A DNA stretch of 64,000 nucleotides from Eledone cirrhosa (lineage: Eukaryota): contig OZ024747.1 of assembly GCA_964016885.1 (NCBI GenBank), forward strand, positions 69,750,001-69,814,000, given 5' to 3'. Each line of letters starts with the position of its first letter. The stretch's first letter is position 1. Shown in pieces: positions 2,830-47,788 of this stretch. The notes under the pieces were generated by a model, which saw nothing but the letters and a program-made list of their open reading frames with translations, was not told where the DNA came from and searched no databases. The position numbers and the translations under genes were made by a program.

Positions 2830-3197
2830 CACATATATTTATATATAAAGATGTATATATAGAGGTGTATGCGTATATATATATATATTTGTATATATAT
2901 ATATATTTGTATATATATATATATATTTGTATATATATATATTTGTATATATATATATTTGTATATATATTTGTATATATATATATTTATATATGTATAT
3001 ATTTATATGTGTATATATTTATATATATATATGTATATATATTTGTATATATATATATTTGTATATATATATATTTGTATATATATATATTTGTATATAT
3101 ATATATTTGTATATATATATATTTGTATATATATGTATATATATATATATGTATATATATTTATGTATATATATTTGTATATATATATATATATTTG

Positions 3198-3234
<37 letters not shown>

Positions 3235-3332
3235 TGTATATATATATATTTATATATATGTATATATATATATGTATATATATTTGTATGTATATATATT
3301 TGTATATATATATATATATGTATATATATTTG

Positions 3333-3431
<99 letters not shown>

Positions 3432-3514
3432 TGTATATATATATATTTATATATATATTGTATATATATATATTTATATATATGTATATATATTTGTATA
3501 TATATATATGTATG

Positions 3515-3561
<47 letters not shown>

Positions 3562-3564
3562 TTG

Positions 3565-3597
<33 letters not shown>

Positions 3598-3605
3598 TGT
3601 ATATA
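2830..3605. repeat. Compound (TA)n microsatellite array with TTTG/TATG interruptions
   Basis: Direct reading; source of the Y/I-rich spurious ORFs. Confidence 0.97.
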
Positions 3606-4274
3606 TCATCATCATCATCAACGTTTAACGTCCGTGTTCCACGCTTGCATGAGTTTGGACGGGAGTTTTCCCACTTGAGGCAAGAGTGATTGTCTTGCTC
3701 GCATAGGACTGTCTGGCAGGTTTTCTACAGTTGGATGCCCTTCCTAACACCAACCACATTTACAGTGTGGGTCTGGGAGGTTTTTACCGTGTTGCCTACA
3801 CGGCCACATTACAGCGTGGACTGTGTGTTTTTTTGTTGTGACACCTACACGATCTCATTTGTTTCGGCCTGGATGGTGTGGCACCGACATAAATTTACAT
3901 AGAAGGGGGCGGTGTGGATGGGGTGGGGGTGGTGGGACGGGGGTGTATTTTGTTAGAGATGCCTACTGACTGTAGTAGGTTTTAATTTGTATTTAGGTAA
4001 GGCGGGTCTTCTCTATTACTGAGTACCACCAAAGGTCTCGGTCCAGTGACATTGTCTTGGTGAGGTGTAAGTGTGTGAGGTCGGAGTTTATCAGCTCGTC
4101 CCAGGTTTTTCTGGGTCTGCCTATTACGTGGCTACCGTCTATCTTTATTGCCCTGCACTTTGTTATACAGCTATCGTCCTTCATGTGCATCACGTGACCA
4201 TACCAACGTAGCCTTCTCTCTAGTAAACAACATCTGATCCCTCTTATTTCTAATTTTTTCCTTAGTTCGTTTAT
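3606..4274 (-). mobile_element. RTE-clade LINE 3' fragment (family 1), 5'-truncated
   Basis: Encodes ...[24 protein letters not shown]..., followed by the 3' UTR and (GAT)n tail; homologous to 31705-32386. Confidence 0.93.
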
Positions 4275-28292: not shown

Positions 28293-28458
28293 TAACAAAG
28301 GAAATGTGGTAAGGAACCAGATGGACCATAACGCACCAAAGTACTCAATACTTAGGGTAGTAGAGTGGGTAATAAGAATAAGTAGGACCCCGATGGCTGA
28401 GCTGAAGCCATTTCGACGGCTAATTCTGGTCTAAAATTTTAGTCAAGAATTAGCCTTC
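28293..28458 (-). mobile_element. Family E short element carrying the 3' half of an HHR and a fold-back end
   Basis: Minus strand: long hairpin GGCTAATTC...GAATTAGCC, then GTC-GAAA-TGGCT tcagctc AGCCA-TC-GGGGTCCT; copies at 45822-45953, 47129-47305 and a variant at 63905-64000. Confidence 0.72.
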
Positions 28459-28499
28459 GGGGTCCTACTTGTTCCTATATATATATATATATATATTTT

Positions 28500-35275: not shown

Positions 35276-35336
35276 TATTTTATCTGATGATAGCGTACCA
35301 AAGTTTTGGTACCCTTAAAATATATATAATAGAATA
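35276..35336 (+). ncRNA. Decayed type I hammerhead (GAAA changed to AAAA), family D
   Basis: TATTTTAT-CTGATGA-tagcGTACCAA agtt TTGGTACcctt-AAAA-TATATA-TA-ATAGAATA. Confidence 0.7.
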
Positions 35337-36125
35337 AATATCGTTTTATAAATATCGTTTCCATTTATTTAATATCATTGAATATTATATTCCAGAAAAC
35401 CTATCGAGTGCTCTGAATCAGTCATAAACATTTATATTTGTTGAATTCCAACAAATTGAATATCCTTTCTGCTTATACATATATATATACATACAAAAAT
35501 ATATATATACATATATAAATACATACATAAATATATATATATATATACGATATTAAATAAATGGAAACTATATTTATATGGTTTTATAAATATAGTTTCC
35601 ATTTATTTAATATCGTATATCTACTCCAAAAACTTGTCGAGTGCTTTATATCAGTTATAAAATATTTACTTGTTGTATCCCAACAATTTTAAATAGAACT
35701 TTTGCATATATATATATACATATATAAAATACATACATAAATATATATATATATATTTACATATAAATACATACATAAATATATATACATACATATATAA
35801 ATACATACATAAATATATATATATACATATAAATACATACATAAATATATATATATATACATATATAAATACACACATAAATATATATATACATAAATAA
35901 ATACACATATATATTTTTATATATACATAAATATATATATATATATGCAAAAGTTCTATTTAAATTGTTGGGATACAACAAGTAAATATTTTATAACTGA
36001 TATAAAGCACTCGACAAGTATTTGGAGTAGATATACGATATACGACTATCCTTATGTCTTCCAAATCTAACGGTCGCATTTTGAAAGGGTACGTCAATGT
36101 TTATTTATAAAACAGGTATATATTG

Positions 36126-36190
36126 TATTTTGTCTGATGAAGGCATACCATAATTTAACTTGGTATCCTTGAAATATGTATAATGAAATA
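36126..36190 (+). ncRNA. Type I hammerhead ribozyme with intact core, family D
   Basis: TATTTTGT-CTGATGA-AGGCATACCA loop TGGTATCCTT-GAAA-TATGTA-TA-ATGAAATA; 8-bp stem I, 10-bp stem II with one mismatch, minimal self-complementary stem III; stems covary with the 35276 copy. Confidence 0.82.
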
Positions 36191-36226
36191 AATATGCTTT
36201 TATAAATATAGTTTCCATTTATTAAT

Positions 36227-36280
<54 letters not shown>

Positions 36281-41813: not shown

Positions 41814-44379
41814 TAGATTATTGAAAATAATATGAATTAAACATTGTTTTTAATTCTATGCTTTTATTTTCTTTTGCAATATATGAATATTGTGTTCACT
41901 ATATAAAGTTTTACTAACTTTGCAAAAGTCGATCTACTTGTAGGACATTAAATAGTTTCAAGTTTTTAAAGACATGCATTTCATAGCTTACAAGTTTTTT
42001 TTGCTTGTGTGTATTATTTTATTATGTAAAAAGCAATAGAAATCACTGCTTGTCATGAAACTGTTTTATGGTCCTGGCAAACAAAATGATGAATGTGTTT
42101 ACTCCATAGGATTGCAAGAGAGAAGCACTGAAAATGCCAGTTTATCATAAGAAGATCATTGGTGTGGACGGCCATCTCCATCTAGATCAAAGTGGGACTG
42201 ACACTGATTTCACCAAGTCACTACTAGAGATGGTATCATTGTAGCCTGCATACTAGATTAAAACTTTTGCATCAGAACTTGCAAAATCAGTGCCCCACTA
42301 TAGATGCAGCTCAAAAAGACTGAAACCAGTAAAAGTATATTTTTCAATATATCATTTGCAAGTAGATTTTAAATAATTCATCCTTTGAGAGAAACTAAAG
42401 TCTGAAGTATTTTGAAAAAGCTATTACATCATCTGTTTTACCCTATTTTATTTTTTGAATTTTCATTTAATGTAAGTTCTTTGTGTGCTCCTGGAGAGGC
42501 TGTAATTGATAGAGAACATTGGTTCTTCTATTCTGATAACATGTGCACATGCACACATCTTTTGCAACCAGTGTATAAAAGATATTAATTGTGCAGTCAA
42601 AATGTTACACACACACACACACACATAAAAGATGCTGTGCTGAATAGGATCCATCCAACCCTTGCAAGCAGGGAAAAGCGGACGTAAAATGATGATGATG
42701 ATGATGATGATTATATATATATATATATATATGTAACAGGCTTTTACACAGTTTCTATCGCTACCGAATTTAACTCAGAAGTCTTTGGTCAATTTTAGGC
42801 TATGGTAAAAACAACATTGTCAAATGCACCACACAGCTAGATCAAGCTCAAACCCATGTGACTATGATGCCAACTTCATTTAGTTTTCTCAAGTATGTTG
42901 ACCATATCTAGCCATCATTAATCTAGGATTGAACTTCTGAATTAAATGTACATGTACATTCCTTTTGTCAAAGAAGTGTCCGAACTTTAGAATCCAGTCA
43001 TTTAATAAAAGTAACTTGGAATGTTATTTTCAACACTAGAGTATTGAATACAATGTAACATTTGAGAGAATACTCTGTAAAGGATCCACTGAAACAGGTG
43101 AAGAAGAAATTATCTTGTTTCTAAAAAGAAGAATTAAATGGATTTTGTAAGAGGTTAGTTTGTGAAAAGTGCTGAGAAACTAATGTTTATTGATTGTCTT
43201 GTTGAAACTGAGGTCAAATGAAATGCTTTTAGCCCAGTGTTTCTTTTAAGAAATCCATTGATAAATGCTGTGAAAGGCAAAGTTACTAGCAGAAGAACAG
43301 AAACCCCACATATTTGGTCAGTGATTCAGTAATGATTTTGTTTCCAGATTTTCTGAGGCATACCTATTGATTACTGCAGTGTTTTCAATTGTGTTCAATC
43401 TATATAAGACCTATAAATATTAGGGTACTTTTTGAATGGATAAAATATTAAAGATAAAATTGTCACTAAACAGATCTATAATATGATTTTCGTTCCAAAA
43501 CATTTCTATATAACTCAAGAATCTACAGAATATAGGTGACTCAATTGATAAAGTAACTCCAAAGTATTGGTTTAATCACATTATACTAGAAGGTATCAGA
43601 ACCATCAAGAATGTTAATACTTAAATCACACAGAAGCAGTCAAAAGAAAATTAAACAAGCCTATAAGAGAGTGAGCCAGCAGAGGAGCAACTACAGCCTT
43701 CTAGACATGGCAACCAAATCTACCTCAAATTGCACTGAATTATATTTAATAAATAAGGATGCATTAGATCATGTAGCTATAGTTATCCCTGGAAAGGGTT
43801 GACAGTCATGGTTGGAACAGCTGGGTTGACCCAGGATTAAATAACAATAACTGGGAGGACTCTTCAGTTATGACAACGATATGGCGGCATGTCTAGTGTT
43901 GGTGATCTACATGATAAACCCAACCATTACATACTGTAAAGTGGTTGGTGATAGAAAGGGCATCCAACCATAAAAAGCTGCCAAACAAATGGTTGGGGGG
44001 ACTCTTCAGTTGTATCAAAAACATGACAACCTCCCCTGTGCACTCAATAGAACATAAATCCATACATAAGAGAGATACAGACTCCTCCCCTCCTGGCCTA
44101 TCTGGGAAGTCAGTAACCCCACTGCAGTACTGGTATGGTCTAGGTAGACCCATCCAACACTTTCTAGTAAGGAAAGCAGACGTTAAAAGTCAATGATTAT
44201 GATAATATATGAGTTTATTAATTTCTTTGTAATTATAGTCTCAATCAAGTCTTTTTTATTCTGGGTGACCAGGAGAAATTTGATTATAGGAAAATAATTT
44301 AGAAAGATTGGCCAGCTAAGAACAGATGTTATCTTCTCAAATTGATGAACTGAGAACTAGATCATTCTTTACTCTCTCA

Positions 44380-45800
44380 TGCTTTTGCTTCTTTCAACCA
44401 CTTGAACAAAGCCATTTCTCTGAGGGAATCTGGGACCTGTTTTCCTTTCTAAATACCAGGACTTTTGTTTTTGACACGTTAACTTACCGTAGTCAATTTT
44501 ATTTTTAACCTTGCTGACTGGTCCTCTATACAAGGCTTGTACAGCCTTCAAAAGCCACTCATCTACTCCTAGTTTTCTAAGAGCTCACTAGATAATGGAA
44601 CGGGGGATTCTGTTAAAGGCTTTCTCCAGGTCAACAAAAGCTAAGTAGAGATGTTTACTTTAAGCTAGCTATTTCTCTTGAGTTGCCTCACAAGGAAGAG
44701 ATCATCCATAGTAATTTTACCACGCACAAATCCAAACACCATTTCATCTAGGTTAACTCAGTCCCTAAACAGTTGTAGCAATTAACAATGATGCTGCTTG
44801 CCAGTCATTGTGTATTAATTGGTTGATAATACGGGAGGCCATGGCATGACCACCATCTCAGATGCTGAAAGCATCTTAGCAACTATCCCCGAAGGTCCAG
44901 CTGCTTTGCAATCCTGAACATACATGCTTTTGGCCCTCATATTGCAGACATGCTTGTTTTTATTTTCTGCTTCCCTTCTTGCAAAGTACACTTATCACTT
45001 AGCTTCTCTCCTAACCACCTGGTAATGTTCTCTACTTCCCTCAGCCCACCATTTTTTCCATACCTGTCTTTCTTTTGCCCCCTTAATTATCTCCTCCACC
45101 CCTACTGTTCCCCCACCAAATCCCTCTCCTTCACCATAAAGATCTGCTTCAACTGCAGATATCCTTTGTCCCATTCATTAGGTTATCGTTCAGGAATTCC
45201 CACTGCTCCTCTGTTTTATTTCTCTATTTCCTCTTCATTATTGTCAAAAGCATCAAGCAACATACTTTTAAATTTGTTACCAGCTGTGGAGTCCTTCTTC
45301 TCCTCCAGGTTGTCCTCTGATCTAACTATAAGATCGCTAACTACAAGGTTATGTTGGGATGTGCATTCTTCACCATGGAGGGACTTTGCATTTACAACCA
45401 TCACTGTGTCGTGTCTTCTGGTAAAGATTAGATCTATCTGGCTGGTATGCTCACCTGGTCTTTAGGTGATCAAGAGATTGTTTGCTTTTTTGGAGTTTGT
45501 GTTACAGGTAAAAAATATCATTGGCATCACAGAATTCCATGAGCCTGAAACCTTCCTCATTTCTAGCACTAAACCCATAACCCTTCGTAGCCATCACAGT
45601 GTGCAACATGCCCATTAAAGTCACCGGCAATGATTATGAAGTCACCGTATCTTATTTGGAAAGAAGTGTTCATTAGGGACTCATTGAACCTGTCTTTTAG
45701 TAAGTTCAGTGGACCAGATTGGGGTGCATAAGCAGATATAATTGACATGGTTTTTCTATGTAGCACTAGCCTAATTTTAATGATTTTGTTGTTGATATAT
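44380..45800 (-). pseudogene. Heavily decayed RTE LINE (APE plus RT remnants)
   Basis: IISAYAPQSG...IAGDFNGHV, QIDLIFTRR...[18 protein letters not shown], with many indels. Confidence 0.9.
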
Positions 45801-45821
45801 GATATATATATATATATATAT

Positions 45822-45953
45822 AACGAAGGAAATGTGGTAAGGAACCAGGTGGACCATAACGCACCAAAGTACTCAATACTTAGGGTAGTAGAGTGGGTAA
45901 TAGGAACCAGTAAGACCCCGACGGCTGAGCTCAAGCCGTTTCGACAGCTAATT
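45822..45953 (-). mobile_element. Family E short element
   Basis: Matches 28293-28425; minus strand reads GAAA-CGGCT..AGCCG-TC. Confidence 0.8.
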
Positions 45954-46359
45954 CATATATATATATCATATATCAACAACAAAATCATTAAAATTAGGCT
46001 AGTGCTACATAGAAAAACCATGTCAATTATATCTGCTTATGCACCCCAATCTGGTCCACTGAACTTACTAAAAGACAGGTTCAATGAGTCCCTAATGAAA
46101 ACTTATATATATATATATTTATATATATATATATATATATTTATTTCGTTTCTGAATTTGTTTAGCAAGATTCTTTATCTGAAAACGTGTGTTGAAACCG
46201 ATATTGTTATGCTTTGGGAGGGTCATGTTGCCAATAAGAAACACACACACCAGTTGCTTTCACTCCAATTTATTATAAATTAAATTTATAAATTTAAGAA
46301 TTTATAAATTTATAAATTTCCGGTTGGTTGGTTCCATAACCGGACGGTTGTTCATATAT

Positions 46360-46403
46360 TTTCAAAGTTCTTTCGTCACACATTCTGTGACCTCTTCAGT
46401 GAC
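46360..46403 (-). ncRNA. Minimal type I hammerhead ribozyme in the PLE 3' region
   Basis: Minus strand: TCA-CTGAAGA-gGTCACA gaatg TGTGAC-GAAA-GAAC-TT-TGA; about 200 nt downstream of the GIY-YIG stop. Stem I is short and may be decayed. Confidence 0.72.
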
Positions 46404-46600
46404 TGAGGATTCTTTTCTTTCTTTTTGTGCCTCTCCTTTGTTCTGTCCTATGCCATCTTGTTTTTGTGTGTGTTGTGTGCTTAGTTTGCGCATGTGTTAC
46501 ATCCGGGTGTCTGTGTGTGTTTATATTTGTTTATTTATTTGTTTATTTACATGTTACTGGTTGGTTGTTTGTTCTATGTGTGTGTGTTTTCATTTTGTCC

Positions 46601-47110
46601 TTAATTGTAAGTTGTGATGTTGCTATTCCATTCATATTTTCTATTTAATTTTGGTTTGAGTTCATTTATGTTTATTGCCTCTTTGATTTGTCTAAACATT
46701 GCGTATTTTCTGTGTGTAGATTCTATTTTTATTTCTATGTTTTCTAATTTACCCTTATGTTCTATTTTAGCATGTTGGTGGAGTACAGATGATTCTTTTC
46801 TATCTTGAAGCTCTCACCAGTGTTCATTTATCCGTTCTCCTATACTAGGAGCTGTCTCACCTATGTACACTATATTCTTATCTCTACATTGTCCTTCAGT
46901 ACATCTTATGCAATATATTACATTTCTAGTTTTACAGTTAATATGGGGGCTTAATTTACAGATTATACATTTCTTATCTATACAGGAAGGTCTTCGAAAA
47001 GGGTATGTATTGCTAATAAGTGTATTTATGGAGGTACCTGCTCGTTCTACTATCTTAATATTGAGTTTATGTTTATCTAGGACCCTTCTAAATTTGTAAG
47101 CTAATTCACC
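46601..47110 (-). pseudogene. PLE GIY-YIG endonuclease with Cys-rich linker (170 codons, one in-frame TGA at 46814-46816)
   Basis: Manual translation: GELAYKFRRVLDKHKLNIKIVERAGTSINTLISNTYPFRRPSCIDKKCIICKLSPHINCKTRNVIYCIRCTEGQCRDKNIVYIGETAPSIGERINEHW*ELQDRKESSVLHQHAKIEH...MFRQIKEAININELKPKLNRKYEW. Confidence 0.92.
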
Positions 47111-47128
47111 CCATATATATATATATAT

Positions 47129-47305
47129 AGGAACGAGACAGCTGAGCTCAAGCCATTTCGACGGCTAATTCTGGACTAAACGTCGAAACGGCTTGAGCTC
47201 AGCCATCGGGGTCCTACTCGTTCCTATTACCCACTCTACTACCCTAAGTATTGAGTACTTTGGTGCGTTATGGTCCACCTGGTTCCTTACCACATTTCCT
47301 CCGTT
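47129..47305 (+). mobile_element. Family E short element with inverted 5' segment
   Basis: 47181-47305 is the reverse complement of 45822-45945; 47129-47180 is an opposite-strand piece of the same element. Confidence 0.8.
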
Positions 47306-47788
47306 ATATATATATCATAATGTATTTTTTTATTTTCATCATACCACTTATTTATACAAAACAAAATTGCTACTAAACTTTTCTATATATTTCTCTAACT
47401 TCATATTTTCACTTACTTTGTCAATATCATAACTTACACAATAACTTTATACACTTCCTGAATCTAACATACATATATCCAAGAGCTTTTCATTTATACT
47501 ATGAGAAATTTTTTTGATACAAATCCAATTTGAATGTTATCTATACAAATATATTACTTAAATTGTATATATATGTATATATATGAGCTATATAATATAA
47601 TATGTATATATATATATAATCTATATATATAATATATATATATATATATAATCTCACCCTTGAAGGCAAGGAAAAGCGGACATAAAATGATGATGAATCT
47701 ATATACATATGCCATATAAATATAAATAGAGATATATATACATATGTGTATATCTATATATATATATATATATATATATAATCTCTCT

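Follow-up and report, generated by a model that had tools for sequence, protein, structure and literature searches.

A Penelope-like element lineage with a GIY-YIG endonuclease at the C-terminus, a predicted hammerhead and a large insert in the reverse transcriptase, traced from a dead copy in Eledone cirrhosa

Nematis, reportedly described by Arkhipova in 2006, is a clade of Penelope-like elements (PLEs) that carry a C-terminal endonuclease (EN). Eight PLE clades are named in the list given in a preprint (bioRxiv 10.64898/2026.07.22.740005). According to the text of Craig et al. 2021 (PMC8557442), IFDs separate the PLEs with an N-terminal EN from the canonical ones, and Coprina is the only sporadic exception listed there. 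The Naiad elements of that text have an N-terminal EN, a CxC motif, DKA, an IFD of ~20 aa and no canonical hammerhead. Partial-tandem pLTRs, inverted 5'-truncated copies and an optional tail are also described for PLEs in this source. The window analysed here is the whole stretch of 64,000 nucleotides of Eledone cirrhosa DNA, and it quite probably holds a dead copy, made by target-primed reverse transcription, of a PLE family that combines an insert-bearing reverse transcriptase (RT) with a C-terminal GIY-YIG EN.

The copy in the window and its family

The copy is an ordinary dead fragment, truncated at its front. Its features and flanks are the following:

46143..47110, minus strand: 5'-truncated PLE copy, the final ~965 nt of a ~4.1-kb unit
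46601..47110, minus strand: ORF remnant (end of the RT-to-EN linker and GIY-YIG endonuclease), with a natural stop TAA at 46603-46601
46958..46984, minus strand: Zn-finger-like linker motif C-x4-C-x2-C; the Cys ahead of NVIY comes 7 residues later
46853..46924, minus strand: GIY-YIG core NVIY...C-x4-C...YIGET, including both Cys of the CCHH motif
46814..46816, minus strand: in-frame TGA that breaks the nuclease and splits the frame into 99 + 70 codons
46361..46403, minus strand: minimal hammerhead motif of type I, located in the 3' UTR/pLTR, with a predicted cut between 46365 and 46364
46224..46226, minus strand: ATG that opens the long ORF if the terminal repeat stands in tandem before a body
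46143..46200, minus strand: ~55-nt "tail", the stretch by which the family's two alternative 3' ends differ; the window copy has the long end
46104..46144, no strand: (TA)n run at the 3' junction
47113..47129, no strand: (TA)n run at the 5' truncation point

The window copy corresponds to positions 3126-4086 of the reference copy L021:4101-8188, to which it is 93.6% identical. The minus-strand frame 47110-46601 translates, in order, as VERAGTSINTLISNTYPFRRPSCIDKKCIICKLSPHINCKTRNVIYCIRCTEGQCRDKNIVYIGETAPSIGERINEHW, a stop, a part with HQHAKIEH and a part with RQIKEAININELKPKLNRKYEW. NVIY is located at 46924-46913 and YIGET at 46867-46853, and R..EH, H...H, RQI.EA, LN.K.EW and ERAG are all present in this frame. 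When the translation is set beside the text of Fig. S2 of PMC8557442, the CCHH motif and the catalytic residues R, H, E and N are found in the EN of the window copy. The upstream piece of the frame matches the Pfam GIY-YIG model PF01541 with an E of 6e-4 and 20.4 bits, under the curated cut-off of 22.6. At the site of the in-frame TGA, 14 of the 18 readable copies have CGA, 3 have TGA and 1 has TAA; this majority of CGA indicates that the TGA of the window results from CpG decay, and a reading as selenocysteine is ruled out. The ATG at 46224..46226 is followed by the (TA)n run, so that nothing is encoded from it here.

In a search of the species' own genome, the window fragment matches 40 scored loci, out of 5895 candidate loci that are not copy numbers, with 91-95% identity along the greater part of the fragment. 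At 19 other loci, a sharp 3' end is seen, and most copies reach further 5' than the window copy. Two long copies define the ~4.1-kb unit (L021:4101-8188). Longer copies carry the RT motifs A (MDVVSLYPS), B (QEEGAAIG) and C (YSRYVDD) upstream, followed by thumb and linker; in L021 and L022, these three motifs, the thumb, the linker and the EN stand in one reading-frame order. The mean divergence is 5.5% (2.7-7.4%) among the 20 best-scoring copies, a sample biased towards window-like copies. An intact full ORF was found in none of the 22 long copies, the longest open stretch being 464 aa, and intact RT+EN ORFs of ~1000-1200 aa were found in relatives, of which the closest named one is a hypothetical protein of Octopus vulgaris (69%). 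L060 (about 790-1070 of the upstream flank) holds another family of this lineage, with a DNA identity of only 69% to the present one. Between the N-terminal motifs and the RT, L021:4770-5330 encodes an Asn/Thr/His-rich, low-complexity stretch of variable length, which is a frequent site of frame breaks among copies; this is parallel to the Asn-rich inserts that the text of PMC3846280 gives for the ORFs of rotifer PLEs.

A 5'-truncated copy of the 3' end stands directly in front of the body at 20 of 20 loci that were picked by the 5' body alone, and inverted partial copies are also seen at many of them. The ATG of the ORF sits inside this pLTR (the ATG is present at 14 of 17 junctions, and the frame stays open for 60 codons at 15 of 17), which means that only tandem copies could be expressed. 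Copies of the family end at one of two 3' positions, which are separated by ~55 nt; an AATAT overlapping the (TA)n target is found at both. Over all loci retrieved, 75 distinct 3' ends were found, of which 19 continue into a body and 56 are free; TA repeats come after 50 of the 56 free ends, compared with 14% of window positions. The preliminary description had recognized a Penelope-like GIY-YIG relic in this minus-strand frame, and every motif that it listed is there; the in-frame TGA is absent from that description. It had placed a hammerhead downstream, which is borne out below, and the PLE-type RT and the (TA)n preference that it anticipated are both found, the former in L021 and L022.

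The hammerhead and neighbouring elements

The window hammerhead, ~200 nt past the ORF stop, has its CUGAAGA core at 46399, a stem II of 6 bp with GAAA, a stem III of 2 bp and a stem I of 3 bp that contains a mismatch, compared with 4 bp in 48 of the 58 core-bearing copies. A structure-aware descriptor scan of the whole window gave 2 hammerhead motifs, and a match was obtained in 1 of 20 shuffles; the Rfam scan gave no match at the gathering threshold. Minimum-energy folding does not recover the window hammerhead (z -0.18), as is expected because the motif is minimal. The core is kept in 54 of the 64 matches of the family, and of the 58 core-bearing copies, 48 have a perfect stem I, 43 a perfect stem II and 49 a perfect stem III. 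The support for the motif comes from the descriptor and from conservation among copies that are 94% alike and carry no covariation evidence.

Metagenomic relatives provide a second view, with 46 loci, of which 19 reach the end of the ORF and 18 have at least 150 nt behind it. A full sense hammerhead is located behind the ORF in 6 of these 18 (antisense 0; 0.02 expected by shuffling), and in 3 under a stricter descriptor. The other 12 are without a descriptor hammerhead, although 3 of them show a core and several contigs end early. The predicted hammerheads are a trait of the lineage. In the text of Cervera and de la Pena 2014 (PMC4209133), the minimal hammerheads of metazoan PLEs are likewise type I and located in the pLTR, with a short helix I, a 2-bp helix III and a longer helix II whose 5' end carries an unpaired base; unlike these, the window motif has a loop III (AA) that is not self-complementary. 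Behind the ORFs of L190 and L192, a U3-A8 variant of the core was observed.

Several other elements are found in the window. Hydra-clade PLE 3' ends are present at 36040-36230 (+) and 35284 (+); the hammerhead at 36134 is well formed, that at 35284 decayed. The former marks the 3' end of a high-copy family. In the longer copies of this family, frames open for up to 749 aa code for a protein of Hydra type (RWR, DKT, CxCX5C linker, no CCHH), and the RT and nuclease of the family are its own. Copies of this Hydra-clade family are 97-99% identical and have long open ORFs, which suggests that the family is young; its AT-rich 3' UTR is ~1.4 kb long. In addition, an abundant, TA-flanked family of ~190 nt occurs at 47128-47306 (+), 45821-45955 (-) and 28293-28478 (-), and its copies have a tail, a fixed fold-back point and, at the terminus, a long hairpin (z -7.8 to -10.7). 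Its two copies that flank the relic point outwards and are 97% alike.

The palindromic family (47128-47306, 45821-45955) was rejected as a hammerhead family, as no CUGANGA core is present in the window's 3 copies or in 14 others. The 36134 family was rejected as a dependent of this PLE, having its own RT and EN and no shared sequence with it; sequence shared with this PLE was not found in the palindromic family either. With enzymes of its own in the one family, no core in the other and no shared sequence, nothing in the window needs this PLE as a helper.

A decayed APE-endonuclease LINE at 44369-45813 (-), which we take from its motifs to be RTE-like, hosts the TA repeats used by these insertions. 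A 150-bp piece of it is inversely duplicated around the short element (45664-45813 and 45955-46104, 99.3%), adjoining the PLE 3' end, and the cluster at this inverted duplication may be one complex insertion with template jumps. In the genome, at least six PLE types are found: this lineage, Nematis-like, Neptune, Poseidon-like, Hydra and Naiad remnants. A canonical short-linker (Nematis-like) family is represented by L150:2744-4174 and L154:3-1364. The Neptune-type copies L142:875-4162, L140:3809-6622 and L143:3922-5829 have open RT+EN frames of 1096, 938 and 636 aa, respectively, and are candidates for recent activity.

The insert between RT motifs A and B

Relatives of the family were gathered with an open RT stretch of 436 aa, resulting in 37 long proteins and the best 150 of 2687 representatives (clusters at 50% identity); 115 of these best 150 are at E <= 1e-30. 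The spacer between motifs A and B, counted from the motif-A Asp to the motif-B Gln, is measurable in 84 of the 186 relatives and is 124-141 aa in 83 of them and 43 aa in one. The EN lies downstream of the RT in all 49 relatives having both domains. In Nematis-like control proteins, the spacer is 49-60 aa (~94 measurable of 120 listed homologs). When all were aligned together, each of the 26 lineage rows had 66-79 residues in the columns of the insert; these columns are empty in the 27 canonical rows and have 12 and 19 residues in two decayed Naiad remnants. The rows of Fig. S1 of PMC8557442, counted by hand, give spacers of ~58-60 for Penelope and Nematis, ~81 for one Naiad, ~119 for the longest Chlamys row and about 115-150 for two TERTs.

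Conserved residues of the insert are E, CPxR, G, P, R, W and P, with a basic stretch CPxRxxxGRxPxIT. In AlphaFold models, the pLDDT is 93.6 for the RT and 90.6 for the insert region alone, which is mostly helical, and a folded module is predicted for the insert. The best fold matches of the RT model include telomerases (Foldseek E 1.9e-5); the comparison with telomerase gives Z 12.7, rmsd 9.3 and 307 aligned residues, tied with a DGR RT at 12.3. The model of the insert region gave no Foldseek match at E <= 0.001 and a best VIA Z of 4.0, with no TERT listed and no informative row. The insert has the same place between motifs A and B as the telomerase IFD and a similar spacer length; no sequence or fold match was found for the insert itself.

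The Pfam RVT_1 cut-off is reached by none of 6 full lineage proteins, compared with both of 2 canonical controls, which indicates that the lineage is likely under-annotated as "hypothetical protein". A search of the ESM Atlas returned only "hypothetical protein" clusters, some with RVT_1 or PF26215, and a sequence search of the PDB returned only a weak match to the DRT1 RT, and none for the EN part.

Placement of the lineage and alternative readings

Among the described clades, Nematis as given in PMC8557442 shares several parts of the architecture: a C-terminal GIY-YIG with CCHH, a short CX2-5CxxC linker, tandem and inverted pLTRs, and a hammerhead. The linker motif is carried by 96 of 110 relatives, and its spacing is that of the Nematis_C4, Pp and Cr rows of Fig. 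S2, not the long Neptune/Naiad type. Nematis differs in having no ~70-aa insert, with an A-B spacer of ~60 in the rows of Fig. S1, and the lineage differs from Nematis in its long stem branch and its ~4.1-kb unit with an Asn/Thr-rich stretch ahead of the RT. With Neptune, the lineage shares the C-terminal EN, the linker Zn-finger, CCHH, the pLTR architecture and the microsatellite bias. However, Neptune has a long linker and no insert, and its copies in this genome form a separate 100/100 branch; Neptune membership is ruled out. Hydra membership is ruled out as well, since the absence of CCHH, the CxCX5C linker, DKT and the divergent motif B that mark Hydra are not features of the lineage.

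The Naiad and Chlamys elements of PMC8557442 also have an insert at the IFD position, (TA)n targets and a DK motif that is not DKG, and Naiad shares the linker Zn-finger and CCHH in addition. Their inserts are ~20 aa (Naiad) or ~20-40 aa (Chlamys), compared with ~70 aa here, and their nuclease is at the front. The linker of the lineage is short. The DK motif of the lineage is DKA in L021, DKS in L022 and in printed relatives, and DKT in one. A CxC motif upstream of GxKF/Y was not seen by eye in the N-terminal translations of L021, L022 and L085. As the nuclease is C-terminal and a hammerhead is present, Naiad membership is ruled out.

Three trees were built with the insert removed, the first with 55 rows including Hydra, and two subset trees with 26 and 21 rows and without Hydra; left out were P0034, P0288 and P0276, in which motif C could not be located, and P0128, which had a very long branch. 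The lineage is one long branch in all three (100/100). It groups with Nematis-like RTs at 95/92 when Hydra, on a long branch, is included, and at 93/87 and 90/88 (mixture model); in the subset trees, it is sister to these RTs or unresolved among them, in trees that hold no named Nematis sequence. "Nematis-like" is a label based on motifs, and the controls (Neptune, Nematis-like L150, Poseidon-like, Hydra, Naiad remnants) come from the same genome, with no named Nematis, Naiad, Chlamys, Coprina, Athena or TERT sequences. The Naiad side consists of two decayed remnants only; a search from one remnant found no intact Naiad homologs, and the exact Naiad_Ovul motif gave 0 matches. In the AU test, trees that force the lineage together with Naiad are not rejected (p 0.119 and 0.147), and the p of 0.0504 for those that force it together with Neptune is borderline. 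Judged from these sequences, the lineage is best read as lying beside the Nematis-like RTs.

On balance, we lean towards a large, unnamed PLE clade that combines a rear GIY-YIG, a hammerhead and a folded RT-finger insert of telomerase size, this insert being either an independent IFD-like clamp or a surviving link. The clade appears to be abundant in the genome under study and in many environmental assemblies. Whether it is already catalogued, for example as a Nematis subgroup or as generic "Penelope", with an insert known to specialists, is the first alternative to be weighed. This is possible, though we consider it doubtful. It would fit the size of the lineage, with its 115 clusters at 50% identity and E <= 1e-30 among the best 150 of 2687, the linker of Nematis type and the annotated Octopus vulgaris protein within the lineage; its size and that protein indicate that members are very probably present in repeat libraries. 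It is opposed by the rule in PMC8557442 that gives the IFD to N-terminal-EN PLEs with only Coprina as sporadic exception, by the spacer of ~60 in the two Nematis RT rows of that source, and by six lineage motifs that are absent from its Naiad, Chlamys and Hydra ORFs. In addition, no C-terminal-EN PLE with an insert of this kind was found described in the literature search. Members may nevertheless be present in libraries of the Repbase/Dfam type.

Alternatively, the lineage could be the sister of Naiad/Chlamys, with an insert that is a homologue of their IFD, and perhaps of the telomerase IFD as well, and with a C-terminal nuclease and a hammerhead that were either retained or acquired, so that it records a permutation of domains. 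The insert position is the same, the spacer of 128 falls within the TERT range of ~115-150 in the Fig. S1 text (PMC8557442), the DK motif is DKS/DKA rather than DKG, and the AU test leaves such trees standing. However, all three best trees put the lineage with Nematis-like RTs, its linker is short and of Nematis type, and the residues just before the insert look like those of the Nematis-like rows. Together with the lack of any CxC seen N-terminally and a Naiad IFD of only ~20 aa, this makes the sister relationship unlikely.

A Naiad relic whose enzymes mobilise the short hammerhead families of the window is highly improbable, as the common (TA)n target, the CX2-5CxxC linker and the insertion of elements into adjoining TA repeats stand against a C-terminal EN, a hammerhead of its own, a 36134 family with Hydra-type RT and EN, and a palindromic neighbour that has no core and no sequence in common with this PLE. 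This reading goes back to the preliminary description, which had taken the C-terminal GIY-YIG as a mark of Neptune/Naiad-type PLEs; the Naiads described in PMC8557442 have an N-terminal nuclease. Its proposal that such elements supply RT and EN to short hammerhead families did not survive at either neighbour. ERAG and LN.K.EW, which it took to point to Naiad, hold as markers of the lineage: among 110 relatives, a set that contains near-duplicates, 75 have E[RKN]xG and 66 have N.[KR].E[WF], and neither motif is present in any of 87 Nematis-like proteins or of 6 in-genome controls. Within the family, ERPG is the prevailing form (36 of 40 matches). ERAG fails as a Naiad marker, being present in none of the Naiad ORFs in the PMC8557442 supplement.

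Returning to the unnamed clade, the lineage is best read as a branch related to Nematis, with an insert of its own acquired at the place of the IFD. The full body would be transcribed from the upstream tandem terminal repeat, which would also provide the start codon, as the layout seen in the sequence suggests. The hammerhead would trim the tandem read-through RNA, probably as a dimer, by analogy with the hammerheads in the text of PMC4209133. The nuclease, together with the Zn-finger linker, would nick (TA)n DNA, in line with the Penelope biochemistry given in PMC8557442, and the freed DNA 3' end would pair with AAUAU at one of two RNA points ~55 nt apart. Early termination would give short copies such as that of the window, which is likely the product of target-primed reverse transcription at a TA repeat, broken off after ~965 bases. 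More speculatively, the insert could grip the template or primer like the telomerase IFD, given its position and the conserved basic CPxRxxxGRxPxIT stretch.

If true, this would break the published rule that IFDs mark front-nuclease PLEs (PMC8557442), and the insert would be either an independent IFD-like clamp or a surviving link that joins telomerase with canonical PLEs and Naiad/Chlamys. Telomerase has its closest relatives among the PLE RTs, and the IFD is among the few characters that bear on this relationship, according to the text of the same source. The intact ORFs of ~1000-1200 aa in relatives would make the role of the insert testable by deletion in vitro, and the joint presence of a TERT-sized insert and a rear-nuclease architecture would provide a test of whether the insert arose once or several times.
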